Sequence record: PQ724394.1
Source of the DNA: a phage
DNA length: 64,000 bases
Strand: one strand, 5' to 3'
The notes under the pieces were generated by a model that was not told the DNA's origin, searched no databases, and worked only from the letters and a program-made list of their open reading frames with translations. Positions 860 through 35,952 of the stretch are shown piece by piece (position 1 is the stretch's first letter; each line of letters opens with the position of its first letter). The position numbers and the translations under genes were made by a program.

Positions 860-2818
860 ATGGCTACTCCTACGAATTACCAATTAACAAGAACCGTTAA
901 CGCTATCCCAAAAGTATTTGTGGGAGCTACGTTTGAAGAAATTAAAAAGAATATTATCGATTGGCTTTCCAGCCAGGAAGAATTTAAGGATTATGATTTC
1001 GTTGGTTCTCGAATGAATATCCTTATTGATATGCTTGCTTATAATACTCTTTATATACAGCAATTTGCTAACACAGCTTTATACGAGTCTTTTATAGGAA
1101 CGGCAAACCTTCGTTCTTCGGTTGTCCAGGCTGCACAAGATAACGGATACCTTCCTAGTTCCAAATCTGCGGCAAAAACAAGTATTATGTTGACCTGTAC
1201 TCAGGCCCTGAATGAAAAGAATATTCGTATCCCACGTGGTACTAAATTCTTGGCCTATGCTCGTGATACTTCGGCAGACCCATATGCTTTTGTTACCACG
1301 GAAAACGTTATTGCCGTACGTGATGTTAATAACCAATATCTCCCTATTGTATCTTTAGCACAAGGTCGTATTATTCGTACCGAACTTAAGTATGACCCTA
1401 AAACTCCTATTCTTATTCGTGACCCGGATATTGATAGACAAGAAGTTAAACTTTATGTCGATGGTGCAGAATGGACTAACTGGACTAATAAATCCATGGT
1501 TCATGCTGGTAGTACATCAACCATTTACTATATGCGTGAAACCGTAGATGGTAATACTGAATTCTTCTTTGGTGAAGGCGTTGCCGAAAAATCAGTTGCG
1601 GGTGGTGTATTAGAAGCTAATTATATTGGTGGTTTAAAACCTGTTAAAGATGCTACAATTGTTATAGAATATCTTCGTACCGATGGTGAAGTTGCTAACG
1701 GCGCAGTGGACTTTAGTTATGCGGATTCTTTGGCATATATTACGGTTGAAAAAATTACAGAAAACTATGATGGGAATCCGGATTATGTAGGTGCTGATGG
1801 TGGCGGTGACCCTGAAGATATCGAACGTATTCGTGAACTAGCTGTAGTTAAACGCGAAGCCCAGATGCGTGCCGTAACTGGTACAGATTATGATACATTC
1901 GTTTCAGAGCGATTTGGTTCTATTGTACAAGCAGTACAAACCTTTACGGACCCAAATAAACCAGGTTACGCCTTTGTTACTATTAAACCTAAATCAGGAT
2001 TGTATTTGACTGCGGTTCAACGTGAAGATATCCAGAATTATCTTTCAGAATTTAACTTGGCGCCTATTACTCCTTCGGTTATTTCTCCGGACTACTTGTT
2101 CTTAAAGCATAAAATTAAGGTTTCATATGCACTGAACAAATTACAGGAATCCGAACAATGGCTAACGGCTCAAATCCTTTCCCAAATAGACCGTTATTAT
2201 ATTAACGAAGTTGAAATATTCAACCACGGATTTGCCAAGTCTAAAATGCTGACTTATATTGATAATGCAGACCACAGTATCCTTGGCTCTTCGGCTACGG
2301 TAACAATGGTTCGCGAGGTATTAAACTTCTTCAAAACACCTGAAGCAGGTATTAAATACTATAATCAATACACCAACCGTTCTGTAACTTCTAGTGAATT
2401 TGAGTTCGTCCCAACAAACGTATCGGATGATATTAAATCTTATAACGTACGTATTGTTGCCACAGATAAAGACGAACGAGGCGATGGTAAAATGGTTATA
2501 GGTCCTTTCCGTCCAGGTGATGTAATTGAAAACCAATACATCCAACCTTACACCGGAGATGACTTCGATAAAATGGCAGCTCCTGCAGACCAATCGGTCT
2601 ACTATGTTATTGGCGAAATTGATTATTACTCAGACTTTATTTTCTGGGATATCGCCGCGATAGGCCTTACTTCCGACCGTTTTGAAGTCCAGTCTATTGA
2701 ACTTTATGCAGGACCAGACCAAGACAACATCTTTACCAAAGACGGTTCTTTAATCGTATTTGAAGATGACCTTCGTCCTCAGTACACAACTATAGAGTTG
2801 GAACCAATTACAATATAA
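860..2818 (+). CDS. 6: baseplate wedge protein gp6
   Basis: 652 aa (T4 gp6 about 660 aa); position between 5.4 and 7. Confidence 0.85.
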   Translation: MATPTNYQLTRTVNAIPKVFVGATFEEIKKNIIDWLSSQEEFKDYDFVGSRMNILIDMLAYNTLYIQQFANTALYESFIGTANLRSSVVQAAQDNGYLPSSKSAAKTSIMLTCTQALNEKNIRIPRGTKFLAYARDTSADPYAFVTTENVIAVRDVNNQYLPIVSLAQGRIIRTELKYDPKTPILIRDPDIDRQEVKLYVDGAEWTNWTNKSMVHAGSTSTIYYMRETVDGNTEFFFGEGVAEKSVAGGVLEANYIGGLKPVKDATIVIEYLRTDGEVANGAVDFSYADSLAYITVEKITENYDGNPDYVGADGGGDPEDIERIRELAVVKREAQMRAVTGTDYDTFVSERFGSIVQAVQTFTDPNKPGYAFVTIKPKSGLYLTAVQREDIQNYLSEFNLAPITPSVISPDYLFLKHKIKVSYALNKLQESEQWLTAQILSQIDRYYINEVEIFNHGFAKSKMLTYIDNADHSILGSSATVTMVREVLNFFKTPEAGIKYYNQYTNRSVTSSEFEFVPTNVSDDIKSYNVRIVATDKDERGDGKMVIGPFRPGDVIENQYIQPYTGDDFDKMAAPADQSVYYVIGEIDYYSDFIFWDIAAIGLTSDRFEVQSIELYAGPDQDNIFTKDGSLIVFEDDLRPQYTTIELEPITI

Positions 2819-2832
2819 GCCTCTTCGGAGGT
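2819..2832 (+). other. short UUCG-tetraloop hairpin between genes 6 and 7
   Basis: gcctc-ttcg-gaggt immediately after the gene 6 stop and before the gene 7 AAGGAG ribosome-binding site. Confidence 0.35.
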
Positions 2833-2845
2833 TTAAGGAGATTTA

Positions 2846-5800
2846 ATGTCTGTACAAGCGCCTTATGTTACTAGTCTGAGAATTGATAAGCTCTCGGCTA
2901 ACCATGTGAGCATTCTTTGGGATGACGTAGGCGCCAACTTCTATTATTTCGTAGAACTGGCCCAAACGAAGGATGCGGGTGTAGAAATTCCCGACGATAG
3001 ATTATTTTGGAGAAATTTAGGTTACACCCCTAATAACGAATGGTTTGAAGAGGCATTCATTTCTCCTAATTCATTTTATAAAATGCGAGTTGCGGTAGCT
3101 GCTCAGGGGTTTGAGCAGTCTGAGTGGGTTTACACTGAAGAATTTGAAACTTTCTCTACCAACGCATATACATTTGAGCATATGCGTGAATTCACATTGT
3201 CTAATAAATTTATTGAAGAAAAATTCACAAAAAATAATCAGAATTATGTGAACTTTAATACTGACGCCATTATGGCTTCCTTAATGACGGAAGATTTTAA
3301 CTTTACGCCGGCGTATTCGCATTTGTCATCTATATCAAATTATGTTTTAAAAGCCGACCGATTCCATGAAATCCAAGGAAGCATTCAAGCAGTTTGTAAA
3401 GACCCTAAACGTTCTATTTTAATGGAACTTGGTGGAGTTCTGTATCTTTTAGAAAGATTCCAAAGCACTGCTAAAGTTTCTAATGATAAAGGACAAAACT
3501 GGCACTATATTAGATTGTTTAACGATAGAGTGGGTAATCCGGTATCTAGAACGGCCCATTACCAAACAGAAACTACTACATACGTACTAGGTTATGACCA
3601 AATATTTTACGGGCGTAAATCAAGTGATATTAGATGGTCTGCTGATGACGTTCGCTTTAGTTCTCAGGATGTAACATTTGCTAAAATCGGTAGTGATATC
3701 GACCTTCCGTTTGAAATAGAAATATTTGGGTCATATGCAAAACTCCCATTGCCTATTTCCACTATCGCCGAAGCTATGTGTGCTTCCGACGATTTCATTT
3801 ATGTTGCGGGTAGAGACAGAGTTTATAAAGCAAAAACATCTGAGGCCCCTATAGACACTGACCCTAGCTCACCAACTTATGGCGAGAAGATATTTGAAAG
3901 CGGATATTCAACTATCACAGGGAACCCTAAAGCTGTTTGTTATAAATTAGATTCTATCCAAGGGCATACGTTTGCTTTAATTACAGGCGAAGTTAAAGAA
4001 GAAAAAATGGACCCTACAGTAGAGGCTAACGTAATTGATTCTGAATCTAAAGGTGTCTATTGGTTGGATGTAGAAACAGATACTTGGACTCGTGTATTCG
4101 GAAATACTGAAGAAGAACGTCGTCGTATAGAGCATGGATATACTAGCATGTCTACAGATGGCGAAGAGTTATTTTTCAGTTCAAGCAACTTTAGATATGA
4201 AGTGGAGGTTGATTCTGAACTTCCTTGGAAATATCCTGAAATTGTTACTTCGGCTGTTAAATACGTTAAAGACGAACAGTGGATTCATAATAAGCATTAT
4301 TTGATGATGAGCTTTAGGTCTAACTCTAAATCAGATTTTAAAGAATTTAAACCAGGTCGTATGGCTTATTATGCTGAACCATTCTTCAGTTGGTCACGTC
4401 GTGATGGAACCCGTTCTTGGATTACTACAGGTGACCATGCGATGGTTGTTTATAACGATGCTTTGTATCAGAAAGTAATCGACCTTAATAGTGGTTCATC
4501 GCCAGAACGTATTGTTCATGAGATTTGGAATAAAGGATTTTGCAAAGTTACATCCCCTAATATCGAATTTAATGGCTTTAAAAAATATTCCTCTGGTATG
4601 ATGATTCACAAATCTACAGGTGAATTAGTTGGTTATTTTGAATTCGACTATCGTGTGCGTGATGAAGTCCGTGTTATTTGGAAGCCTAAAGAAATTATGT
4701 TTACGGCAGAGCTCCAAAACCAAGAGCATGAAATTCCATGGGCCCCTAAAGAAGAGACCGGCGAACAAGACCCCGATTTGAAACCATTATTAGTCAAAAT
4801 GGTTCCCGATAGTTATTTACTCCAAGATTCCAATTTTGAAAAATTCTGCGAATATTATCTACAGTTTATTAGTGATGGTTCCGGCACTCATTATAATAAT
4901 TTGTTAAACCTTATTCGTAATCAGTATCCTCGTGAAGAAGACTCATGGGAATACCTATGGTCTGAAATTTATAAACGTAATATCTATTTGTCAAAAGAAA
5001 AACGCGACGAAGTTGTTAGATTTTTCCAAGCTCGTCAGTCTGATTTTTGGTCAACTAAAGGTACTGAAGCTTCATATAAATTCCTGTTTAAATTGCTTTA
5101 TAATGAAGATGTCGAAATTGATATCGAGTCCAAGAACTCTATCGAATATGATATCATCGTAGAATCCGACAATATCAGTGAAGATATCGTAGGCCAAACG
5201 ATTTATACTCCTACAGGAAGAAGTAATGTTACTTATATAGAACGAAATTACAAAGACGGTAAATTGCAATGGCGTTTAACCATTCACAATCTTTTAGGTC
5301 GTTTTATAGTCGGTCAGGAAATCAAATCTGAACGTACTTCATTTAAGGGTATGATTGTTCAAGGTGTTCGCGGCAAAGAGCTTTTGAGTAACAATATAGA
5401 TTATATCAACCGTAACCGTTCTTACTATGTGATGACTATTAAGTCTAATCTCCCGACCTCTCGTTATCGCAACGACGTTTTGAGATTTGTTCACCCGGTA
5501 GGTTTCGGCTTTATAGGTATAACTTTGCTTTCTATGTTTGTTAACGTTGGTTTAACACTAAAACATACAGAAACCATTATTAATATCCTTAAGAACTATA
5601 AATGGGACTCAGGTTTGCCATCTGAATGGTATGATAGAGTTGCTGTAATAGGTTTTGATGGTAATATAGAACGAGACCCTCGTACAGGTGCTCCGATGTA
5701 CAACGTTGGACCTAAAGCGGGTGAACCATTTGATATTCCTGCTGATTATGATGCAGAAAATGATTTCTCTGTATTCCAAGGTCAATTACCACACGAACGT

Positions 5801-11871: not shown

Positions 11872-14406
11872 ATGATTAACAAATTGGAACTTAGTGAGTT
11901 ACCATTTGTTGACGGCGTACCTGATGCTCCTCAAAAGCGTATCCAATGGATACGCGAGGGTGATTGTATGTCTGCAGCAAAAACAAAATACGGCAATGAA
12001 GGTAATTTGAACGCTGCTGCTTTAGGAGTTCAGAAAAACGTAGAAGCTCTTGATGCCAACGATTTAAAAACTGCTGATAAAGTTAATGAGCTTATAGAAA
12101 ACGTTAATAATATCAATGACGCTTTAGAAATGTCAACAGATATTTCCATCATTCAACAAATAGAGAAAAACCGTGTTGATATTGTAGACCTTAAAAAAGT
12201 CACCGAAGATACAACAGAAAAATTGGACACCTTAACAACCAATTTTGATTTCTTGCGTGAAGATGTTGGATATCATGACCCTTTACAAGATGGGCCTTAT
12301 TTAACTGTACGTGAAAATATTGTTCTTCTTAAAAATGAAATTGGTCACTATGAGGACCAGGATATAAACGGTAATCCTTTACCTCCAGGTGAAACTAGTG
12401 AAGCCACTGGTATAAAACGCCGCATCATGGATAATACCACTGAATTGGTGGACCATCGTCTTCGTATTGATACCCTTGAAAGAAACTATGAAGATTCTGA
12501 TGTTGGGCAATTAGGTATTAAACTAAATGAAATTCGTGCCGAATTAGGACCACATTCTGATACGGTAGGTAAACAACCCGCTTACACCCGAATTTCAGTA
12601 TTAGAAACGGCTGCAGTTAATTTTAATACGGCTATTGACGAAATTAAGGATAATATTGATTTCTCTGGTATGCCTATAAAGGACCGAGTAACTACTTTAG
12701 AAAGCAAAACCTTTACCTTAGAAAATTCAGTTAACGTTGATTTAAAACCTAGAGTAACTTCTATAGAAACTCAAATCGGTTCTGAGTCTGCACCAGCATC
12801 TATTAATGGACGTTTAAGTGGGCTTCGTACCGATGTAAATGATTTAAAAACCGTTGTTGGTAATAGTTCTAGTGAAGGACTTCGTTTCCAGGTTTCCGAT
12901 ATTAATCGACGCCTTGGTAGTGAAGTGTCTCCTGCCGCTGGCACTATTAATAAGCGTTTGAATGATGTTATTATTCAAGCAAACCAATCTACCTCGTCCA
13001 TCCAGGATATTCAGGTAGAAATTGGTAACAACCAATCCGGTATAAAAGGTACTTTGCTTAAGCTCACAAATAAGGTTGACGGAACGAACCCTAACGGAGC
13101 TACCGTAGAAGAACGTGGTCTTATTAATGCGGTTACTTCTTTAGAAACCCAGATGCAAGGTAAATTAGGTGACGCGCCTTCTGATGGTAAACTCTATGCA
13201 CGTCGAAATGCGGCATGGGATGAAGTTGTTAATAATTCCACAGAAATAGAAACCGTTAAAGCCGATTTGGTTGTTACCAATGGTAAAGTGACCGCTTTAA
13301 CTTCCAGAGTAGATGATAATGATACTTCTATTTCATCTCTTAATACTCGCACTACTGCTCTAAATACTTCGGTTGGTGAGATTAAAGCCGATATAGTTTC
13401 TATAAAGGCTAAAGATGTTGAACAGGACGGTCGTTTAACTTCTTTGGAAGAGGCTGATGTTACTATTAACGGTAAAATTGCTGCTCTCGAAACTAAGACA
13501 GATACCACTGATGATGATGTCACAGCACTGGCTTTAGACGTTTCTTCTTTAGAGAACCAATTGACTCCTATAAAAGCCGATATTACCAAAAACAAAGGTG
13601 ATATTGTTGCCTTAACCGGTCGAGTGGCTTCTACTGAAGGCGAAATTACCGCAATTAAAGTTGATACAGCCAAAATTGCTCCTTTGACTACTAGAGTTAC
13701 TACGGCAGAAGGTAAAATCACTACTTTAGAAACAGGGCTTGCCGCTGTTAAAGTCGAATCCGATAAGGTAGCAGGTATTAATACCCGTTTAGGTACGGCA
13801 GAAGATGACATCGGAACACTTGAAACGGGTTTGGCTGAAGTTAAGGGTGAAGCCGATAAAGTAGCTGCTATAGATACCCGTTTGGGTGTTGTTGAAGCTG
13901 AAGTTGGTAAAGTAGCTTCTATAGATACCCGTTTAGGCGATGTTGAAGCTGAAGTCGGTACTCTTGAAACAGATTTATCTACTGTTAAAGGTAAAGTTGG
14001 TACTCTTGAAACAGGTTTGGCTGCCGTTAAAGTCGAATCCGATAAGGTAGCAGGTATTAATACCCGTTTAGGTACGGCAGAAGGTAAAATAACTACCCTT
14101 GAGTCTGGCTTGGCTGCTGTTGAAGTTGAATCAGATAAAGTAGCAGGGATTGATACCCGTTTAGCTACTGTTGAAGGCGAAGTTAGTACTCTTGAAACAG
14201 GTTTAGCTGCTGTTAAAGTTGAATCTGATAAAGTTGCTGACTTAGGAACCCGTTTAACCGCTGCCGAAGGTAAAATTACGGCCTTAGAAACAGAATTATC
14301 TAAACGTCCACCGGTGGCTCCTGCCGCAGACGGACTTCCGTATGTTCTGGTTGATAACGCATGGGTATTATTGTCTGATTTTGTGACTTTAAACTCAGCA
14401 CCATAA
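11872..14406 (+). CDS. wac: fibritin (whisker antigen control), expanded 844-aa form with C-terminal foldon
   Basis: N-terminus LPFVDG motif as in T4 fibritin; long coiled-coil with tandem repeats; C-terminal foldon-like LPYVLVDNAWVLLSDF; T4 fibritin is 487 aa. Confidence 0.8.
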   Translation: MINKLELSELPFVDGVPDAPQKRIQWIREGDCMSAAKTKYGNEGNLNAAALGVQKNVEALDANDLKTADKVNELIENVNNINDALEMSTDISIIQQIEKNRVDIVDLKKVTEDTTEKLDTLTTNFDFLREDVGYHDPLQDGPYLTVRENIVLLKNEIGHYEDQDINGNPLPPGETSEATGIKRRIMDNTTELVDHRLRIDTLERNYEDSDVGQLGIKLNEIRAELGPHSDTVGKQPAYTRISVLETAAVNFNTAIDEIKDNIDFSGMPIKDRVTTLESKTFTLENSVNVDLKPRVTSIETQIGSESAPASINGRLSGLRTDVNDLKTVVGNSSSEGLRFQVSDINRRLGSEVSPAAGTINKRLNDVIIQANQSTSSIQDIQVEIGNNQSGIKGTLLKLTNKVDGTNPNGATVEERGLINAVTSLETQMQGKLGDAPSDGKLYARRNAAWDEVVNNSTEIETVKADLVVTNGKVTALTSRVDDNDTSISSLNTRTTALNTSVGEIKADIVSIKAKDVEQDGRLTSLEEADVTINGKIAALETKTDTTDDDVTALALDVSSLENQLTPIKADITKNKGDIVALTGRVASTEGEITAIKVDTAKIAPLTTRVTTAEGKITTLETGLAAVKVESDKVAGINTRLGTAEDDIGTLETGLAEVKGEADKVAAIDTRLGVVEAEVGKVASIDTRLGDVEAEVGTLETDLSTVKGKVGTLETGLAAVKVESDKVAGINTRLGTAEGKITTLESGLAAVEVESDKVAGIDTRLATVEGEVSTLETGLAAVKVESDKVADLGTRLTAAEGKITALETELSKRPPVAPAADGLPYVLVDNAWVLLSDFVTLNSAP
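13669..14300 (+). repeat. tandem ~90-nt coiled-coil repeat units inside wac
   Basis: Near-identical DNA blocks, e.g. 13725-13800 versus 14005-14080 (gttaaagtcgaatccgataaggtagcaggtattaatacccgtttaggtacggcagaag); protein repeats TLETGLAAVKVESDKVAGINTRLGTAEGKIT. Confidence 0.8.
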
Positions 14407-27523: not shown

Positions 27524-27790
27524 CTATGCAATCTTAACTCGACGGTTGATGATATCACGGAAGTCAATACGATTTTCTTGGATTTTAAGCCAGTTACCAG
27601 ATTTGTCTTTGGTATGGGTAGAATATTCGCCGTTCCACCAGAAGTCGGTTTCATAAGCCAGAGCTTCGTATTTCTTAACCAATGCATTAACTGCATTACC
27701 GTTAGGATTGGAACCATATTTTTCTACCAGAGCTTTGATGTCTTTGTCAAGGTTAGAAAGCGTGGTACGGATAAAGTTTAATTTGTTCAT
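27524..27790 (-). CDS. hypothetical small protein (88 aa) at the 23/24 junction
   Basis: Minus-strand ORF; internal ATG at 27790 preceded by AGGAGA; own sigma70-like promoter upstream. Confidence 0.5.
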   Translation of the reverse strand: MNKLNFIRTTLSNLDKDIKALVEKYGSNPNGNAVNALVKKYEALAYETDFWWNGEYSTHTKDKSGNWLKIQENRIDFRDIINRRVKIA

Positions 27791-27819
27791 TTTTAATCTC
27801 CTCATGTTTTGATAGGACT

Positions 27820-27891: not shown

Positions 27892-29175
27892 ATGGCAAAG
27901 ATTAACGAATTACTGCGCGAGTCAACAACTACTACCAGCAACTCATTGGGTCGCCCTAATCTTGTTGCTTTGACCCGTGCTACCACTAAACTAATTTATC
28001 GCGATATCATCGCTGAACAACGTACTAGTCAGCCTATTGCTGCATTGTATGGTGTCAAATATCTTACCCCTGATAATGAATTTAGTTTCCAAACTGGTGC
28101 TGTTTATGGTGGTGAAGTTGGTTCTAAAGACCGTGAAACTATCCCAGAACTCACAGATAAAGCCCAGGCGATTGCCAAGGGTGACTACTTTAAGTATCAG
28201 AATGTGGTTTATAAGGCTCTTCAAGCAAGCCCACTCGCATCCACTAGCGCTACAGAATTGGCTGATGCTCTTCAAGAAGGTTTGGTGTCATTAACGTGTC
28301 GTTTGGTTCCTGATGCGGCGCATACCACTAAATTCGAAGCGAGTGATGTAGAAATCTCTGATGCTGTATTCCAGGTTAATAAATGGAATGCTCCTGTTAA
28401 GACCCGTAAATTGAAGACTGCTTTGACCGTAGAATTAGCACAGGATATGGAATCAAATGGCTTTGACGCCCCTGCGTTCTTAGAAGACCTCCTGGCTACG
28501 GTAATGGCAGATGAAATTAATAAAGACGTTCTACAATCTCTAATAACCGTATCTAAACGCTATAAAGTTACGGGCGTATCTGATAATGGTATTATTGATT
28601 TGACTTATGATAGTGCTCCGGAATCTGCACGTAAACTTTATGAAATTGTGTGTGAGATGAATTCTGAAATCCAGAAAACTACTTCTTATTCTGGTACGTT
28701 TGTTGTGGCTTCAAGTCGTGTGGCTGCAATGCTTGCAGGTTCTGGCTGGTTAAAACATAGACCTGAAGATAATAATTGGCTCCCGGAAACTGCCTATGGT
28801 TATTTGTTGAATGGATTACCTCTGTTCTGTGACGTTAACAGCCCATTGGATTATGTTATCGTAGGTGTTAAAGAGAATTATGGCGGAAATGAAGTCGTAG
28901 GCTCAATTTTCTATGCCCCGTATACAGAAGGCTTGGATTTAGACGACCCAGAACACGTCGGTGCTTATAAGGTTATTGTCGACCCGGATTCATTACAGCC
29001 TTCTATTTCTCTGATGGTTCGTTATGCACTGTCCGCTAACCCGTACACCGTAGCTAAAGACGATAAAGAAGCTCGTGTTATCGATGCAACCAATATGGAT
29101 TTAATGGCTGGTCAGAGTAATATGTCCTATCTGCTCGGTGTTAAACTTCCAGCAATTATTTACGAGGCTGATTAA
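27892..29175 (+). CDS. 24: capsid vertex protein gp24 (copy 1, T4-orthologous)
   Basis: 427 aa, same as T4 gp24; N-terminus MAKINELLRESTTT as in T4 gp24. Confidence 0.85.
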   Translation: MAKINELLRESTTTTSNSLGRPNLVALTRATTKLIYRDIIAEQRTSQPIAALYGVKYLTPDNEFSFQTGAVYGGEVGSKDRETIPELTDKAQAIAKGDYFKYQNVVYKALQASPLASTSATELADALQEGLVSLTCRLVPDAAHTTKFEASDVEISDAVFQVNKWNAPVKTRKLKTALTVELAQDMESNGFDAPAFLEDLLATVMADEINKDVLQSLITVSKRYKVTGVSDNGIIDLTYDSAPESARKLYEIVCEMNSEIQKTTSYSGTFVVASSRVAAMLAGSGWLKHRPEDNNWLPETAYGYLLNGLPLFCDVNSPLDYVIVGVKENYGGNEVVGSIFYAPYTEGLDLDDPEHVGAYKVIVDPDSLQPSISLMVRYALSANPYTVAKDDKEARVIDATNMDLMAGQSNMSYLLGVKLPAIIYEAD

Positions 29176-30455
29176 TGTCTAAGATTATAGACCTAATTAA
29201 AGAATCCACATTGACGGCTGCCAACTCGGTTGGCCGTCCTGCTCTTCTTTCATACACCCAAGCAACTAATAAACGAATCTTTAAAGCCCTAGTTGCTGAA
29301 CAAAAAACAAGCCAACCTGTTGCCGCTCTGTACGGGGTTCGTGTACTTAATCCTGACGACAAAATGACTTATCTTGGTGGCGCTACATTTGCAGGCCAGA
29401 TTGGTATGTCGGAACGTGAAAATATTCCTGAATTTACCGATTCGTCTACAGCTTATGCAGCCGGCGATATGTTCCAGTTTGAAAGTGTAGTGTTTAAAGT
29501 TCTAGAAGCATCTCCTTTCGCCGGAACCACAGAAACCGACCTAGGTGAAGTTATTTCTGAAGCAGTGGCAGCCGGACATATTCGTATGGTATCAGATGCT
29601 GCTATTACTTCTAAATTCGAACAAGGTCATCCCGAAATTGCTGAAGCAGGCTTCCGTATTGACAAATGGCAATCTGAAGTTAAATCACGTAAACTGAAAA
29701 CTTCATTGACAGTCGAATTAGCCCAAGACCTAGAATCAAACGGGTTTAATGCTCCTAATTTCATTGAAAATCTGCTAGGCATTCAAATGGCAGAAGAAAT
29801 TAATAAGGACGTATTACAGTCATTAATTACGGTGAGTTCTCGTTTTAAAGTCCAGGGTGTTTCTGAAAAGGGTGTATTAGACCTTACCAACCCACGTTAC
29901 GATAATGCCCAGGACCGTGCTCGTACATTATATTATTACATGTGTGAGATGAACTCTGCCGTCCAACGTCAAACTTCTTTCGCTGGGACTTATGCAGTAG
30001 CTAGTTCTCGTTGTGCTGCTATTCTCGCCGCTTCCGGTTGGGTTGAGAAAAAGGAAGACCAAGACGAACTGGCTTATGGTGTATTAAAGAATGGTCTGCC
30101 TCTTTATGCCGATATGAATAGTCCGTGTGATTATGTTATTGTTGGTGTAAATGCTCAGATGGGTGAAGGACAGACGGTCGCATCTTTATATTATGCGCCT
30201 TATACGGAAGGTTTGGATGTGGTTGATGAAGAAGGTGATACTTCAGTAGGTGAATTTAAGGTTATTGTTGACCCGGAAAGCTTACAACCTACAGTAGCAT
30301 TGCTTGCTCGTTATGCATTGACTGCAAACCCTTATACCGTCGCTAAGGACGATAAAGAAGCCCGCATTATTGATGGTTCTGATATGGACAAAATGGCTAA
30401 CCAAAGCCAGTTGAGTTCTTATCTTGGTGTTAAACTTCCACCTTTAGAAAAATAA
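29175..30455 (+). CDS. capsid vertex protein gp24 paralogue (copy 2, divergent)
   Basis: 426 aa, collinear with copy 1 at roughly 55-60 percent identity by eye; TAATG overlap with copy 1 stop. Confidence 0.8.
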   Translation: MSKIIDLIKESTLTAANSVGRPALLSYTQATNKRIFKALVAEQKTSQPVAALYGVRVLNPDDKMTYLGGATFAGQIGMSERENIPEFTDSSTAYAAGDMFQFESVVFKVLEASPFAGTTETDLGEVISEAVAAGHIRMVSDAAITSKFEQGHPEIAEAGFRIDKWQSEVKSRKLKTSLTVELAQDLESNGFNAPNFIENLLGIQMAEEINKDVLQSLITVSSRFKVQGVSEKGVLDLTNPRYDNAQDRARTLYYYMCEMNSAVQRQTSFAGTYAVASSRCAAILAASGWVEKKEDQDELAYGVLKNGLPLYADMNSPCDYVIVGVNAQMGEGQTVASLYYAPYTEGLDVVDEEGDTSVGEFKVIVDPESLQPTVALLARYALTANPYTVAKDDKEARIIDGSDMDKMANQSQLSSYLGVKLPPLEK

Positions 30456-31603: not shown

Positions 31604-31816
31604 TTACTTTAGACCAAAAACGCGCTTTGCGCTGACTTTTTTGTTGTTTAATCTTTTACGATATACGACTTTCTCTCTTGCTTTAAACTTGGCCTTAGCA
31701 TTCTCAACTTCGGCCCAAGCTTTAGCCATATCTCTGGCAGTTCCGCCAATCTTTTTAGCAATATCAATAAAATTCATACCAGATTCATGTAAAAAATGTA
31801 CTTTAATCTTATCCAT
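31604..31816 (-). CDS. small basic protein with putative helix-turn-helix (70 aa)
   Basis: Minus-strand ORF; segment NFIDIAKKIGGTARDMAKAW resembles an HTH; basic C-terminus; position equivalent to the T4 24.2/24.3 region. Confidence 0.5.
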   Translation of the reverse strand: MDKIKVHFLHESGMNFIDIAKKIGGTARDMAKAWAEVENAKAKFKAREKVVYRKRLNNKKVSAKRVFGLK

Positions 31817-31844
31817 AACAATTCTCTTGTGATTTGACTATTCA

Positions 31845-31874
31845 ATAGTAACATGAGAATTTTAACTTGTAAAC
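31845..31874 (-). promoter_or_regulatory. sigma70-like early promoter candidate (GTTTAC-N18-TACTAT)
   Basis: Minus strand: GTTTAC (31874-31869), 18 nt, TACTAT (31850-31845), about 29 nt upstream of the ATG at 31816. Confidence 0.45.
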
Positions 31875-31884
31875 AGGAGATTTT

Positions 31885-33390
31885 ATGTCAGACAATCCAT
31901 TATACGGGCATGACGGTAGAGGTCACTTTAGAGGCGTATCATTAGTAGAAGTTCCGCAGGATAAATCATTGGAATTTGCAGACATACTCACTAGTGAAAG
32001 CACCTTAGACCCTACTATGTTGGATTCTTCTCAAAGTTATGGACTTGAATTTATAAAACAAGCTTCTAGGGAAGGCGCGTTGGCCCATTTAGGTATAACT
32101 AATGAGATGCTAACACCTGGTACTGAAGGTCCACAAGGCCCTAAAGGAGACCCAGGGCCGCAAGGTATTCAAGGTAACCCGGGTCCTAAAGGAGAAAAGG
32201 GCGAACCAGGACCAGCAGGTCCAGAAGGTCCTAAAGGAGACCCGGGTTCACCAGGAAAAGAAGGCCCTCAGGGTTTACAAGGGGCCCAAGGAGAAGTAGG
32301 ACCGCAAGGACCACAAGGTCCTATAGGCCCAGCAGGTTTGGTGTGGAAGGGAGCCTGGGATGAATCTACCCAATACTCTAAAGACGATGCAGTTGGATAC
32401 CAGGGAGCTTCTTATTTTTGCATCAGTTCTAATACAGGAACAATACCTCCTAGCGAAGGAGTTTGGGCGCTATTGGCTAATATCGGTGCACCAGGTCCTC
32501 AAGGACCAACCGGCCCAACCGGCCCTCAAGGTCCACAAGGCGCGCCAGGCCAAGATGGTAATGGGTTTATCTGGGCCGGAAACTGGGCCCTTGGTTCGTC
32601 TTATTATATAAACGATTTGGTCCAGTGCGAAGGGTCTTCTTGGATTTGTATCCAGGATAATATAGCAAATAATGATAGTTATCCCGGGAGTGGAGACCTG
32701 TGGGCCGATTATTGGAATTTATTTGTAAAAGAAGGGCGTCCAGGAAATCCCGGAGAAGATGGTGCACCTGGAGAGCAAGGCGCCCAAGGACCGCAAGGCG
32801 ACCCGGGTCCTAAAGGTGAAAAGGGCGAACCTGGGCCACAAGGTATTCAAGGTCCTATAGGGCCCGCAGGTGCTCCTGGTAAAGATGCAGTATTTGATGT
32901 TGATTCTTTAACCCAGTCTCAATTAAAATCTTTATATGATAAACTTTTCCCATTCTATCCACCTAGATATTGGAAAGGCTCTTTAAGATTTGATAAGCCT
33001 CTGAACACTTCAGAGTGGAAGGAAATACGTTTATGGGACCTTAATATGGTTCTTCATGTTCGTATGTATTCGTCTTTAGGCATCCATATAAGGGCTACTA
33101 ATGCGGGTCTTACCAACAGACTTGATATTAAAAGATTTACCAACTATGAAAACGGGATAGAATGCGCCAACTGGAGTAATGTTCTGTGGTCCTCAACTCC
33201 TGAATTATTCGACGATTTGGCTTATTCTAGTGCAAGACAATTTAACCGTTACGAAATATTTGACCGTGATACTAGAAAATACTACACTGTATCTGTGTTT
33301 ATTGTAGGCGGCCCTCTTAATACGACTACAGATATCCCTGTTGAAGTTTTATTTTCTGTCGAAGACCATACTAATATGAGCCCATTTTAA
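31885..33390 (+). CDS. collagen-like repeat protein with two tail-fibre-type W/Y/C-rich modules and a globular C-terminal domain
   Basis: 501 aa; three Gly-X-Y runs (about 24, 9 and 17 triplets) separated by two ~45-aa modules ([30 protein letters not shown] and [30 protein letters not shown]); GGAG ribosome-binding site. Confidence 0.75.
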
Positions 33391-33399
33391 GGAGGTCGA

Positions 33400-34266
33400 A
33401 TGATTACACTTAAAATAAATGGTCCTAGATATGAATTAGTTGGAAGAACTGTAACCTTTTATACCGGGTTTGTATTACCGCCCGGTTCTACTCTAGACGA
33501 TGTAGAAATTAATTGGTATAAAAACGATGTCCATATTCCACAACTTCCTACCGAGGACCCTTTTGAATTAAATTTGTGGGAAGTAGGATTCCCTGCTGCC
33601 GGAACATTTTATGCGACTATAACAAATAAGAAAAGTGGAGAAATAACTAAGAGTAATGAAATAGAACTTGAAATAGGTACCCTTCCAAGAAGGGTTATTT
33701 TAGATATAAATTCAAGACGATTAATATACGCTAATATAGGAGAAACTGTTGCACTTAGGCCATCATGTAGAGTAGAGCCTTCTTATGCGGAAAGGGTTTG
33801 TAGATGGTACAGAGACGGAGTCGAATTATCTAAAGATGAAGATATCGATATATTAATAGACAACTCTAGTAAATTCGGGGAGTATACATTAAAATCTATA
33901 GGAACTTGTGAAGGAGCATATATCCCTGCTTCTGAAGAACTTTTAGTTGAAATAAAACCTAGGGATGATGTATTGCAGTGCCCTTTCATATATGATAACG
34001 ACCTTAATGCTTATTTACCATATGGCGGTGGAAGAAATGAATCGTATATGTGGATAGGTTGGTGGGTATGGGACGAAATAAGAGAAGCCGTTAGATTGGG
34101 AGAAGATTGGACTTTGGATATAAACAACAGCCCATACAAGTATAAATGTGAGTTACAAAAAGTAGCCGACCTTTTGTCTAAGTATCCTGAAGTAGAGATA
34201 CAAGAGTCGAGAAATGGCTACATCTTAGAAAGGAAGGACTTAGTTTACGTCCCTCCTGAAAAATAA
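33400..34266 (+). CDS. Hoc-like protein 2: Ig-like N-terminal region plus conserved Hoc-type C-terminal module
   Basis: 288 aa; AAGGAGG ribosome-binding site 10 nt after the collagen-like gene stop; C-terminal ~70 aa (YMWIGWWVWDEI...YPEVEIQESRNGYILER) matches the C-terminus of the 470-aa Hoc at 34540-35952. Confidence 0.65.
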   Translation: MITLKINGPRYELVGRTVTFYTGFVLPPGSTLDDVEINWYKNDVHIPQLPTEDPFELNLWEVGFPAAGTFYATITNKKSGEITKSNEIELEIGTLPRRVILDINSRRLIYANIGETVALRPSCRVEPSYAERVCRWYRDGVELSKDEDIDILIDNSSKFGEYTLKSIGTCEGAYIPASEELLVEIKPRDDVLQCPFIYDNDLNAYLPYGGGRNESYMWIGWWVWDEIREAVRLGEDWTLDINNSPYKYKCELQKVADLLSKYPEVEIQESRNGYILERKDLVYVPPEK

Positions 34267-34270
34267 TAAA

Positions 34271-34289
34271 GGGCCTACGGGCCCTTTTT
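34271..34289 (+). terminator. intrinsic terminator after the Hoc-like 2 gene
   Basis: gggcc-tacg-ggccc followed by ttttt. Confidence 0.75.
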
Positions 34290-34454
34290 GGTTTGTAAAA
34301 TTTTATCTATAGTAGCTATTATCCCGAAAAATGAACTAATGCATGAGAAAAGAGCCAATATAGAAGCAAACAACCCACTAGTTAATGAAATTAACGAAAA
34401 CAAAAACAGCACTATAAAGAAAACCAACAACCCTATATCTTTGTTAAATTTCAT
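34275..34454 (-). CDS. candidate small hydrophobic protein (59 aa), not in the ORF track
   Basis: Minus-strand ATG at 34454 preceded by AGGTGG; translation MKFNKDIGLLVFFIVLFLFSLISLTSGLFASILALFSCISSFFGIIATIDKILQTKKGP; AT-rich region, so chance ORF not excluded. Confidence 0.3.
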   Translation of the reverse strand: MKFNKDIGLLVFFIVLFLFSLISLTSGLFASILALFSCISSFFGIIATIDKILQTKKGP

Positions 34455-34521
34455 ATATCCACCTATTAAAAATTATTCGTCAATAACTTAATCTCCCGAA
34501 ACACTATCATAAACTAAATAA

Positions 34522-34535
34522 GGGCCTTGCGGCCC
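34522..34535. terminator. bidirectional terminator-like hairpin downstream of hoc
   Basis: gggcc-ttgc-ggccc flanked by A/T-rich sequence on both sides, immediately after the hoc stop. Confidence 0.6.
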
Positions 34536-34539
34536 TTTA

Positions 34540-35952
34540 TTAATAAACGTAATCGTAAATAATTCCAGCATCCAAAGCGGTTCTGTGAATAATTCTACCA
34601 TTACGAGATTCCTGTACATCAACCTCAGGATAATCGGCTACCATTTTTTGAAGGGTATAACGATGGAGATAATATTCACTATCAGGTTCGTCAGTTTTCC
34701 AGTCTTTGCCTTCAAGGGTCATTTTCTGAATTTCGTCCATAACCCACCAACCACACCAAATATAAGCTGAATTACGAACTGGTAGCGGATGAACGTAAGG
34801 TAGTTCGCCCTCTGGTTCAGGAGCTACTTTAGCCGTAATTGTTACATTACCTGTTTTTTTGACAGTCACAGGATTATAGTCGGTAGCCGAAACAACAGCA
34901 GAAACTTCAATAACCTGTGAACCTTCAGCGCTTGTGTCAATTACTAATGTATCCGTAGCACCCACAACAGGTGAACCATCTTTCTTCCAAGAATAAGCAA
35001 AAGTAGCACCACTAGGCGCACCGACTACCGTGGCTTTAAAAGAAGCCGGGATTCCTTCAGAGACAGTAATAGAAGCAGGCGTTAAATTAACAGAAACACC
35101 TGTCATAGTCTTTTTAGTAATTGTTACACTTCCTGTTTTGGTAACGGTTAAATCATTATAATCCGTACCTTTTAGGAGTACCGAAACTTCAATAGAGTAA
35201 GAACCTATTGTAGACGTATCAACAGCAAGAGTATTACTGCTTTCGCCCGGAATAATAGAACCATCTTTCTTCCAAGAATAAGTTGCATTTACGCCGGAAG
35301 GAGCACCAACTACATCCGCTTTAAACTGTGCAGATGAGTCTTTCTCTGTACTAATTGAGGCGGGCGTTAAAGTAACAGAAACACCTGATATAGTTTTCTT
35401 AACAAAAGTTACCGCAACACCTTTAGTAGCGGTACCCGGGTCATATTCAGGGGCGGTAACAGTAACTTCACAGTTCAACGTGTAATTTGCTTCTGCTGCT
35501 TCGGTTACAGTAATAGTTTTACCAGTTTGTCCAGAGATTACGCTGGTGTTACGTTTCCAAACATAAGCAATTGTTGCGCCTGCAGGTGCACCCGTCACGT
35601 TAGCAGTAACAACTTGAGATTGGCCAACTTCTTTAGAAACAGAAATAGGGTCTAAGGCCAAAGAAATAGACATGGTCTTATTAGCTACGGTAACTTCAAA
35701 AGTATCTTCAGCTACCTCAGGTTCGCCTTCAGCCGGAGTAGAAGTTGCTACTACTTTTAAAACTTTCTTACCTGCAGGTGAAGCACCTGTATATTTCAAA
35801 ACATTGGTTGCTTCTGGATTAGAAGCACCATCAATAGACCATACATATGTAATGGTTCCTTCTACAGCTGCACCTGTTGCGGTAGCAGTGTAGTTAGCAC
35901 TTTCGCCTATTTTAATAGACGCTGTGCCGGCTATACTTACAGTAAAAGCCAT
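34540..35952 (-). CDS. hoc: Hoc-like outer capsid decoration protein with four Ig-like repeats and C-terminal capsid-binding-type module
   Basis: 470 aa; tandem ~95-aa Thr/Ser/Val-rich repeats; C-terminal module shared with the 288-aa paralogue; position between inh and the accessory cassette as for T4 hoc. Confidence 0.75.
   Translation of the reverse strand: MAFTVSIAGTASIKIGESANYTATATGAAVEGTITYVWSIDGASNPEATNVLKYTGASPAGKKVLKVVATSTPAEGEPEVAEDTFEVTVANKTMSISLALDPISVSKEVGQSQVVTANVTGAPAGATIAYVWKRNTSVISGQTGKTITVTEAAEANYTLNCEVTVTAPEYDPGTATKGVAVTFVKKTISGVSVTLTPASISTEKDSSAQFKADVVGAPSGVNATYSWKKDGSIIPGESSNTLAVDTSTIGSYSIEVSVLLKGTDYNDLTVTKTGSVTITKKTMTGVSVNLTPASITVSEGIPASFKATVVGAPSGATFAYSWKKDGSPVVGATDTLVIDTSAEGSQVIEVSAVVSATDYNPVTVKKTGNVTITAKVAPEPEGELPYVHPLPVRNSAYIWCGWWVMDEIQKMTLEGKDWKTDEPDSEYYLHRYTLQKMVADYPEVDVQESRNGRIIHRTALDAGIIYDYVY
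34815..35685 (-). repeat. tandem Ig-like domain repeats within hoc
   Basis: Repeated protein units (KKTISGVSVTLTPASIS..., KKTMTGVSVNLTPASIT...) with corresponding DNA similarity. Confidence 0.7.

Follow-up and report, generated by a model that had tools for sequence, protein, structure and literature searches.

A collagen-like gene paired with a Hoc paralogue: a candidate head-fibre cassette in a subset of T4-like phages

Hoc is the textbook dispensable, Ig-like capsid decoration protein; it is adhesin-like, and the notion of phage adherence to mucus is built on it. In phi29, the gp8.5 head fibre is a helical coiled coil standing at quasi-threefold sites of the capsid. In Agrobacterium phage 7-7-1, an Ig-type link protein on the capsid has been proposed as the base of the capsid fibres, which sit on pentamers and target flagella and whose fibre protein has not been identified (PMC12796354). 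The fibres of 7-7-1 and phi29 resemble the one proposed here in being long, flexible head fibres for first contact, although neither of the described fibres is collagen-like or bears carbohydrate-binding modules (CBMs). Phage SPP1 encodes a protein with a collagen motif (Gly-X-Y), gp12, which, as outlined in two later reports, forms a trimer at capsid hexamer centres, lies on the outside of the capsid, is dispensable and is thought to aid adhesion (Zairi et al. 2014, via PMC7602432 and PMC5292684). According to the same reports gp12 differs from the protein described below in being small, in binding hexamer centres directly and in having a helical C-terminal part; it also lacks CBM modules and a dedicated Ig-like partner. 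When our entire protein was compared by tblastn with 50,697 phage records (E <= 1e-5), no Bacillus phage matched, and hence no sign of homology to gp12 appeared. Lastly, phage tail-fibre and bacterial surface proteins that combine the Pfam families Collagen (PF01391) and CBM_5_12 (PF02839) alternate Gly-X-Y runs with modules in the same way. They number in the thousands, some with T7-tail-fibre or collar domains, but they lack the N-domain with its GHDGRG motif, the tip domain and the Hoc-like neighbour that we describe here.

The locus lies in the window, by which we mean the whole 64,000-nt stretch of phage DNA that was analysed (record PQ724394.1); it belongs to a Dhakavirus and matches phages dhabil and dhaeg at 96%. 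A first-pass annotation, made from the letters of the window, had placed a plus-strand collagen-like gene, which T4 lacks, between the minus-strand 24.3-like gene and hoc, with a Hoc-like gene about 10 nt downstream. This layout is confirmed (Table 1), with a spacer of 9 nt; T4-type and RB69-type genomes are without the N-domain, and the fibre gene is absent from T4 and RB69. The annotation had described three Gly-X-Y runs of about 24, 9 and 17 triplets, separated by two modules of some 45 aa rich in Trp, Tyr and Cys, and a C-terminal domain of about 165 aa after the third run. We count 25, 9 and 17 triplets, the first figure becoming 24 if the last triplet, GLV, is assigned to the start of the next module; both modules are where they were described, and the C-terminal region has 167 aa. 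A 59-aa minus-strand ORF between the pair and the main hoc gene had been overlooked. In the literature we found no paper on the fibre gene, on virion proteomics covering its product or on head fibres in these phages, and no binding or microscopy report for any member of the fibre family.

Table 1. Features of the collagen-like/Hoc-like locus (positions in the window)
Feature	Position	Strand	Remarks
24.3 homologue	31604..31816	-	upstream of the fibre gene; DUF2774, E = 6e-29
Divergent leader, 24.3 (minus) / fibre gene	31817..31884	.	motif TTGTAAACAGGAG directly before ATG
Sigma-70-like site	31873..31845	-	
Collagen-like fibre gene	31885..33390	+	ATG-to-stop ORF, 501 aa plus stop codon
N-domain (aa 1-78)	31885..32118	+	family-defining; proposed attachment end
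Collagen run 1 (aa 79-153, 25 triplets)	32119..32343	+	
CBM5/12-like module 1 (aa 151-198)	32335..32478	+	Pfam CBM_5_12
Collagen run 2 (aa 201-227, 9 triplets)	32485..32565	+	
CBM5/12-like module 2 (aa 227-281)	32563..32727	+	optional, more variable
Collagen run 3 (aa 284-334, 17 triplets)	32734..32886	+	
Neck helix + C-terminal beta-sandwich tip domain (aa 335-501)	32887..33387	+	
Spacer, ribosome-binding site GGAGG for partner gene	33391..33399	+	9 nt
Partner Hoc-like gene, 288 aa	33400..34266	+	about 190 aa Ig-like, then Hoc-type C-terminal domain
Hoc-type capsid-binding domain of partner	33994..34263	+	last ~90 aa
Bidirectional intrinsic terminator	34268..34287	.	closes the two-gene unit
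59-aa ORF	34275..34454	-	between the pair and main hoc
Main hoc gene	34540..35952	-	beyond the fibre-partner pair

The fibre gene is clearly coding, since 34 synonymous but only 6 non-synonymous codon differences separate it from its counterpart in phage dhabil, and it is under purifying selection. Its product shares 99% identity with dhabil_240, and with a translation from phage Ec2-ASingh identity reaches 100%. A Pfam scan at E <= 0.1 matched Collagen (E = 8.6e-24; 83.5 bits, cut-off 27.2; four stretches) and CBM_5_12 (37.9 bits against 26.2; two stretches, the better at aa 157-184) and nothing else. Within the Gly-X-Y runs, Pro occupies 43% of the X and 25% of the Y positions. The first-pass expectation of Collagen plus a phage tail-fibre repeat was thus right in its first half; the second half failed, CBM_5_12 taking the place of the repeat, and with it went the attribution of the Trp/Tyr/Cys-rich modules to a repeat of tail-fibre or side-fibre type. 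When a profile of the module family was compared with solved chains, the chitin-binding domain of chitinase A1 (1ED7) matched at E = 1.6e-4 and other CBM5/12 chains at E = 0.01-0.03, and a W, a Y and a second W are invariant across the module alignment. By family, then, these are CBM5/12 carbohydrate-binding modules, for which glycan binding is predicted; inside a fibre they might serve as structural knobs and not as lectins.

The remainder of the protein is conserved to very different degrees. Module 1 is found in all collagen-bearing family members and module 2 in some members only; a mosaic patch sets module 2 of the window apart from that of CLB_P2. The length of the collagen stalk goes from 0 to 104 triplets among family members. 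The tip, a beta-sandwich, gave no match to solved structures in a sequence search, and the jelly-roll trimerisation domain of C1q/TNF-like or BclA-like collagen proteins, which we looked for at the C-terminus, is absent. Between the window and CGG4-1 identity is 72% in the N-domain, 35% in the second CBM module and 47% in the tip, which reads as a fibre-like gradient of conservation. The hallmarks of the 78-aa N-domain are the invariant residues G8 H9 (D10) G11 (R12) G13 of the GHDGRG motif and its 15-residue ending. It occurs in 26 of 50,697 phage records, all Straboviridae and none of them Tequatrovirus or Mosigvirus, and the family that it defines was confined to some 20 T4-like phages plus a handful of metagenomic contigs. 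An IMG/VR scan with the N-domain returned just CGG4-1 and Cronus themselves, and word-indexed searches with the N-domain alone or the C-domain alone gave zero matches while the full-length query did match. Against PDB sequences the N-domain had a single weak match (E = 0.74), and no profiled protein resembles it; an AF2 monomer model was poor (pLDDT 59), with no confident fold.

The product of the downstream gene belongs to the Hoc family. It matches PHROG 1149 ('Hoc-like head decoration') at E = 1e-42 over aa 5-282 and the main Hoc of the window at E = 3e-19 by BLASTP, with which it has the motifs WIGWWVxDEI and QESRNG in common; motif alignment finds the Hoc C-terminal signature (WxGWWVxDEI, QESRNG) in it, while Pfam Ig_2 scores 18.7 bits, under the cut-off of 27. 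It is like T4 Hoc in its C-terminal capsid-binding motifs and, putatively, in its N-terminal Ig-like domains; the retained motifs predict that it binds the capsid. It is unlike T4 Hoc in being an extra paralogue linked to a collagen-like gene. Such partners form their own clade, apart from the main Hocs, and their Ig part remains conserved throughout when subfamilies are compared (E = 1e-35); in the same phage pairs, similarity between the main Hocs is only short and local. The fibre protein itself is unlike Hoc.

Every intact family member adjoins a co-oriented short Hoc-like gene of this kind, in at least three different genomic contexts. We checked the pairing in the window, dhabil, JS10, CGG4-1, Cronus, Aeromonas phages 65 and AhFM11, Phynn, L005, L006/L007 and L019, and judged it from coordinates in AS4, TH15 and ABTNLsp5. 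The order of the two genes is reversed in L006/L007, and their spacing varies: at one extreme 12 nt lie between them, and at the other they overlap slightly, by 4 nt in both Aeromonas phages (65 and AhFM11) and by 11 nt in Phynn. Among the family loci examined we found no intact fibre gene without a partner. Partner-type Hoc-like sequences without an intact fibre gene do occur, in PspYZU05, at the IME08 locus, where the fibre gene and the partner are not adjacent, and in the 944-aa Hoc of CGG4-1. The first-pass view of the two genes as a unit is upheld by this pairing, which is kept across genera and is present twice in tandem in each of two contigs (L005 and L019).

The same annotation had called the cassette 'inserted', and here the comparison with relatives gives a mixed answer. 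Between the window and JS10, gp24b is 99.5% identical, the fibre N-domain 51% and the partner 54-61%; for CGG4-1 the corresponding figures are 85% (gp24), 73% and 59-73%. By these comparisons fibre and partner share a history that is at odds with that of the flanking core genes. In the second pair of L019 a fibre with a variant N-terminus stands beside a partner with a different first Ig-like domain, a co-variation of fibre and partner that rests on few, non-independent sequences. The pair is present or absent as a unit: cassette-less relatives are without both genes, one of them, IME341, with a deletion scar. The leader of the fibre gene is kept in JS10, L006 and Cronus and also in QL01 and IME341, both without the cassette. 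Since the leader or a coding scrap remains in the cassette-less relatives, these have lost the pair by deletion; JS10 carries a replaced allele of it. The two-gene unit and its discordance with the flanks therefore stand, and a simple insertion does not. Judged from these sequences the cassette is accessory, exchanged among T4-like phages as a unit and readily lost. A link to the duplication of gp24 was considered and discarded, as gp24 is duplicated in QL01, which has no cassette, and single in L005-L007, which do have it.

We put at about even the chance that the pair encodes a two-component head fibre, in which the Hoc paralogue anchors a trimeric collagen-like fibre on the capsid and provides a second means of adhesion. 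The 288-aa paralogue would use its Hoc-type C-terminal domain to grip the capsid surface, and its conserved first Ig-like domain would be the docking site for the 78-aa N-domain of the fibre protein. The latter would trimerise; its triple helix, with about 44 nm of collagen in all, would be broken up by two rings of CBM5/12 modules and end in the variable beta-sandwich tip. The phage head would thereby gain a multivalent, probably glycan-directed adhesion, for example to host surface polysaccharide, biofilm matrix or mucus, in addition to tail fibres, whiskers and ordinary Hoc. We infer trimer formation, incorporation into the virion and a site on the capsid from gene context and homology; the contact between N-domain and partner and the ligand of the fibre are likewise proposals. 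More tentatively, at somewhat under even chances, we see in the pairs a modular, horizontally exchanged head-fibre system of a subset of T4-like phages, a dedicated Hoc paralogue acting as adaptor for a CBM-studded trimeric fibre with a swappable tip, possibly at a site other than the ordinary Hoc site, for instance the gp24 vertices. T4 Hoc binds as a monomer and the fibre is presumably trimeric, a mismatch in stoichiometry that counts against such an anchor. Against a head fibre also stand the lack of a recognisable late promoter in the window, of a confident monomer fold for the N-domain and of adjacency of the two genes in IME08, as well as the terminator after gp24b.

If a Hoc paralogue does anchor a fibre of some 45-55 nm with sugar-binding modules, capsid adhesion in T4-like phages would be more elaborate and more modular than thought. 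Straboviridae would then have their first described head fibre, and the Hoc family its first member known to anchor another protein, and carriers in the gut and in water would gain a capsid-borne hold on glycan-rich matrices. The JS10 lineage and CLB_P2 are gut coliphages in use for therapy or gut-colonisation work. Because natural carriers (dhabil, CLB_P2, JS10) and non-carriers (QL01, IME341) of the cassette both exist, its effect on adsorption, host range and gut persistence is directly testable. The N-domain and the partner would also offer a plug-in site for long fibres or cargo on T4-type capsids.

A fairly unlikely alternative is that the genes encode independent accessory decoration proteins that travel together, the fibre binding the capsid by itself (at hexamer centres, quasi-threefold sites or gp24 vertices) and the Hoc paralogue being a second Hoc. 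SPP1 gp12, as outlined in the reports cited above (PMC7602432, PMC5292684), attaches to the capsid without an adaptor, and both the partner-type Hoc-likes that lack an intact fibre gene and the separated genes of IME08 fit such independence. Co-transfer alone would be enough to give both genes a common history; adjacency and common history also fit two independent decoration proteins. Against independence speak the one-to-one pairing even in tandem duplicates, its retention in unrelated genomic contexts, the overlap of the two genes by a few nucleotides, the unusual conservation of the partner's Ig part and the constant presence of a partner beside an intact fibre gene.

Less probable again is an accessory tail or neck fibre, mounted on baseplate, tail or collar and widening host range, in which case the finding would be routine. 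The closest PHROG of the fibre protein, phrog_5073, is annotated 'tail fiber protein', and the variable distal tip is like that of a receptor-binding protein. Collagen and CBM5/12 are frequently combined in phage tail-fibre proteins, and in many proteins they co-occur with T7-tail-fibre, collar or endosialidase-chaperone domains. The PHROG label, however, appears to derive from the collagen repeats, and we found no experimental support for it; Pfam matches no tail-fibre domain in our protein, and its N-domain is unlike any solved or profiled protein. At all loci examined the surroundings of the fibre gene are head genes (gp24, hoc, inh) or the Hoc-like partner, and at none does it lie beside baseplate, tail or fibre genes. 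The window, moreover, already encodes gp12, a long fibritin and a normal tail module.

The signals around the pair bear on when it is expressed. In the leader and the region upstream of position 31885 there is no TATAAATA late promoter, and the conserved TGTAAACA was ruled out as promoter of the fibre gene, as it sits too near the ATG. The minus-strand sigma-70-like site probably drives 24.3. Read-through of transcription into the pair is uncertain because a terminator sits after gp24b. Among relatives, L005 and Phynn have TATAAATA, a late-gene signal, at -63 and -67 respectively, and in Cronus and IME08 the pair or the fibre gene comes immediately after late gene 24; in the window phage expression may be late. 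That the protein is no virion component, but acts as a decoy or as a collagen-like adhesin or matrix protein that the infected cell produces and sets free on lysis, the Hoc paralogue having nothing to do with it, is highly improbable: the missing late promoter of the window and the nearest NCBIfam models, which are bacterial collagen-like adhesins (Scl1/Scl2, Lcl), speak for it, but the scores of these models (72, 67 and 64 bits) do not come near the equivalog cut-offs of 325, 500 and 400 and stem from the collagen repeats only, the N-terminus inspected by eye has no obvious signal-peptide-like hydrophobic stretch, relatives have late promoters or a position after gene 24, and linkage to the paralogue with its capsid-binding motifs is tight. 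The position of the intrinsic terminator that closes the two-gene unit corresponds to the junction of the IME341 deletion scar.

The 501-codon open reading frame for the collagen-like protein is real, and its layout is largely that proposed in the first-pass annotation: three uninterrupted Gly-X-Y runs (the first of 24 triplets if the GLV shared with the next module is left out), two Trp/Tyr/Cys-rich modules between them, 167 residues after the last run, and a Hoc-like gene close downstream. That annotation had also anticipated two Pfam families. Collagen was found (E = 8.6e-24; 83.5 bits, cut-off 27.2); Pfam detected no tail-fibre repeat in the protein, and the modules match CBM_5_12 instead (37.9 bits, cut-off 26.2). 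A profile of 18 family modules matches the chitin-binding domain of chitinase A1 (1ED7, E = 1.6e-4) and, more weakly, the CBM5/12 of chitinase 60 and of chitin deacetylases (E = 0.01-0.03). Judged by sequence, the modules are CBM_5_12 carbohydrate-binding modules. Collagen interleaved with CBM5/12 is common (3,544 database proteins at E <= 1e-10), and some proteins that combine them also have T7-tail-fibre, collar or endosialidase-chaperone domains.

Features of the window (nucleotide positions unless marked aa) and arrangement of the gene pair in relatives
Feature	Position	Remarks
Fibritin (wac) homologue	11872-14406	844 aa
ORF in gp23-gp24a gap	27524-27805	minus strand, 93 aa
gp24 paralogues	27892-29175, 29175-30455	tandem
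Motif TTGTAAACAGGAG	31866-31878	5' of fibre gene
Fibre gene	31885-33390	plus strand, 501 aa
Gly-X-Y run 1	aa 79-153	25 triplets, the last (GLV) starting the next module
CBM1	aa 151-198
Gly-X-Y run 2	aa 201-227	9 triplets
CBM2	aa 227-281
Gly-X-Y run 3	aa 284-334	17 triplets
Spacer, fibre gene to partner		9 nt, carries GGAGG
Partner (short Hoc-like gene)	33400-34266	plus strand, 288 aa; PHROG 1149 'Hoc-like head decoration', E = 1e-42
Bidirectional terminator	34268-34287	hairpin; closes the pair
Hydrophobic ORF	34275-34454	minus strand, 59 aa
Hairpin	34520-34537
Main hoc	34540-35952	minus strand, 470 aa
Upstream of the pair		two gp24 genes, rnlB (minus strand), 24.3 homologue (minus strand)
Downstream of the pair		59-aa minus-strand ORF, main hoc, inh, uvsW
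Window, dhabil, JS10		fibre gene 5' of partner, at the 24.3-hoc locus
CGG4-1 (Gelderlandvirus)		fibre gene then partner
Cronus (Roskildevirus)		pair immediately 3' of gp24b
Aeromonas phage 65		4-nt overlap with partner, annotated 'hoc-2'; another genomic context
AhFM11		genes overlap by 4 nt
Phynn		partner mis-labelled 'capsid vertex protein', Hoc-like by PHROG
Contigs L006/L007		reversed order
Contig L005	6001-10970	two tandem pairs
Contig L019	5001-9993	two tandem pairs
AS4, TH15, ABTNLsp5		genes adjacent, by coordinates
IME08 (L013)	1707-1913, 1916-3103	N-domain and annotated fibre protein in different frames

In the predicted model of the C-terminal domain (the tip; pLDDT 78, pTM 0.68) a helix leads into a beta-sandwich with some ten strands. 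This model had no Foldseek match in the PDB at E <= 0.001, the tip sequence matched none of the solved structures searched, and the tip has no convincing relative among solved structures. It is rare, with only 13 matching clusters among 1.8 billion representative proteins; the predicted viral structures that it matches are members of its own family, the sequence-diverged JS10 (E = 2e-5) and Phynn tips included, and collagen-like proteins of E. coli siphophages. The 78-residue N-domain matched nothing above threshold in the libraries searched and gave a poor monomer model (pLDDT 59).

Full-length relatives share one layout, in which the N-domain is followed by a collagen stalk, a CBM, more collagen, and a neck helix with the tip domain; one CBM is constant and a second optional. 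Residues M1, G8, H9, D10, G11, R12 and G13 of the N-domain are invariant, and the domain ends HLGITxEMLxPG. The stalk ranges from 0 to 104 triplets (~89 nm), the 239-aa Phynn protein having only N-domain, neck and tip; the 51 triplets of the window correspond to a helix of ~44 nm. From proximal to distal, identity to the CGG4-1 protein is 72% (N-domain), 58% (CBM1), 35% (CBM2) and 47% (tip). Declining conservation in this direction is usual in fibres that are anchored N-terminally.

Of 50,697 phage records only 26 contain the N-domain, each from a member of Straboviridae, with hosts in Escherichia, Salmonella, Erwinia, Pantoea, Aeromonas and Pseudomonas; an IMG/VR scan with the domain yielded no new members. 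Over a 6.3-kb region the window shares 96% identity with dhabil and dhaeg, both Dhakavirus, and 94-95% with CLB_P2 and Ec2-ASingh. The fibre gene differs from that of dhabil by 34 synonymous and 6 non-synonymous codon changes, indicating purifying selection. More than 20 deposited genomes contain the gene under uninformative or probably misleading names: 'hypothetical protein' in these four phages, 'tail fiber-like protein' in JS10 and IME08. The phage 65 annotation remarks on a protein 'similar to collagen-like proteins' and a 'second copy of the hoc gene'; our literature search found no study of the function of the fibre gene or of the pairing.

A co-oriented short Hoc-like gene adjoins each intact family member examined, and among these no intact fibre gene without a partner was found. 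The tandem pairs of the uncultured T4-like contigs L005 and L019 differ in stalk length and tip, implying at least two fibre types per phage. Among decayed loci, PspYZU05 has a 50-aa N-domain remnant next to a 132-aa Hoc-like gene, and AP1 the N-domain remnant only. The sole case of separation is IME08, in which the fibre gene follows gp24b, the usual locus having kept the partner and lost the fibre gene. Its annotated 'tail fiber protein' lacks the GHDGRG N-domain, which another frame encodes just upstream; either the frameshift is genuine and the gene a pseudogene, or the 2010 record contains a sequencing error. Thus, as IME08 and PspYZU05 indicate, partner-type Hoc-like genes can occur without an intact fibre gene.

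The partners keep the Hoc capsid-binding motifs WxGWWVxDEI and QESRNG, and a tree built on the last 100 aa places them in a clade of their own, apart from the main Hocs that these phages also encode. Their Ig-like part (~190 aa) is conserved over its full length across subfamilies: that of the window matches Aeromonas phage 65 with 37% identity over 177 aa (E = 1e-35) and AhFM11 with E = 7e-32, whereas the main Hocs, compared between the same phages, give short local matches only (E ~1e-7). The short partners of Cronus (166 aa) and L006 (195 aa) retain the first Ig-like domain and the capsid-binding domain. The second fibre of L019 has a variant N-terminus without GHDGRG and its partner a different first Ig-like domain, a co-variation argument drawn from few, non-independent sequences. 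The main Hoc of the window has internally repeated Ig-like segments, 34973-35127 and 35258-35412 both matching the same dhabil segment at ~70% DNA identity. T4 Hoc, at 376 aa, is shorter; among the relatives examined Hoc length ranges from 178 to 944 aa.

Sequence comparison assigns both genes of the pair a common history, discordant with their flanks. Between the window and JS10, of the same genus, identity is 99.5% for gp24b and 84% for rnlB, against 51% for the fibre N-domain and 54-61% for the partner; with CGG4-1, of another genus, the values are 85% (gp24), 58%, 73% and 59-73%. By junction mapping, QL01 lacks exactly 31885-34521 and retains the leader sequence, JS10 carries a replaced allele from ~31923 to 34585, and IME341 has a deletion scar, 99 nt left of the N-domain coding region (window 31999-32095) being fused to the terminator at 34269. 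CLB_P2 differs from the window mainly in one mosaic patch spanning CBM2 and the third collagen run. The pair is a mobile, dispensable cassette.

Phage fibres of collagen type, fibres with CBMs, capsid decoration proteins and head fibres are all familiar; what this locus adds is a fibre linked to a Hoc paralogue of its own in T4-like phages. The best-supported reading, held with moderate confidence, is a two-component head fibre, which we infer from the gene linkage, shared history, asymmetry of occurrence, conservation pattern and published precedents: SPP1 gp12 (PMC7602432, PMC5292684), and phage 7-7-1, whose capsid fibres stand on an Ig-type link protein (PMC12796354). The Hoc paralogue would bind the capsid and offer its conserved Ig-like domain to the N-domain of the fibre; the latter, a trimeric collagen stalk with CBM5/12 rings and a variable tip, would act as an extra adhesion device, probably glycan-binding. 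Weak points of the head-fibre reading include its stoichiometry, Hoc being a monomer and the fibre presumably a trimer, the few non-independent sequences used for co-variation, and a promoter not recognised upstream of the window gene. It seems unlikely that the two products are independent decoration proteins travelling together, and rather doubtful that the fibre protein belongs to the tail or neck as an accessory fibre, the role its database label implies. The window's structural genes stand in normal T4-type order, gp12 and the 844-aa fibritin included, so the collagen-like protein is an addition, not a replacement. That it is not part of the virion at all we consider highly improbable, and a small residual probability is given to none of these readings.

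The fibre gene looks late in relatives, to judge from sequence signals: TATAAATA occurs at -63 in L005 and -67 in Phynn, TATAAATG at about -74 in phages 65 and AP1, and late gene 24 directly precedes the pair or the fibre gene in Cronus and IME08. Upstream of the window fibre gene no TATAAATA was found; a bidirectional terminator lies 3' of gp24b. A further motif, TTGTAAACAGGAG (ATGTAAACAAGGAG in Cronus), sits just 5' of the start codon of the first cassette gene, also in JS10, L006 and QL01, which keeps it although the cassette is lost; as a late promoter it was rejected, being too near the ATG.

Both gp24 (head vertex) paralogues of the window match Pfam Gp23 (E ~1e-97). Dhakavirus, Gelderlandvirus and Cronus have this duplication with or without the fibre cassette, so the two features are not linked. 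In the fibritin homologue the Pfam 'Fibritin C-terminal region' lies mid-protein (aa 371-454) and is followed by ~390 aa more of coiled-coil-like sequence, which suggests a whisker protein extended past the usual C-terminal end. The 59-aa ORF between cassette and hoc, with a terminator hairpin on either side, has no family match; it is kept in IME341 and absent from QL01 along with the cassette. The 93-aa ORF lies inside the 418-nt gp23-gp24a gap, and in the metagenomic relatives L006 and L007 an 88-aa minus-strand gene is called at a similar place.
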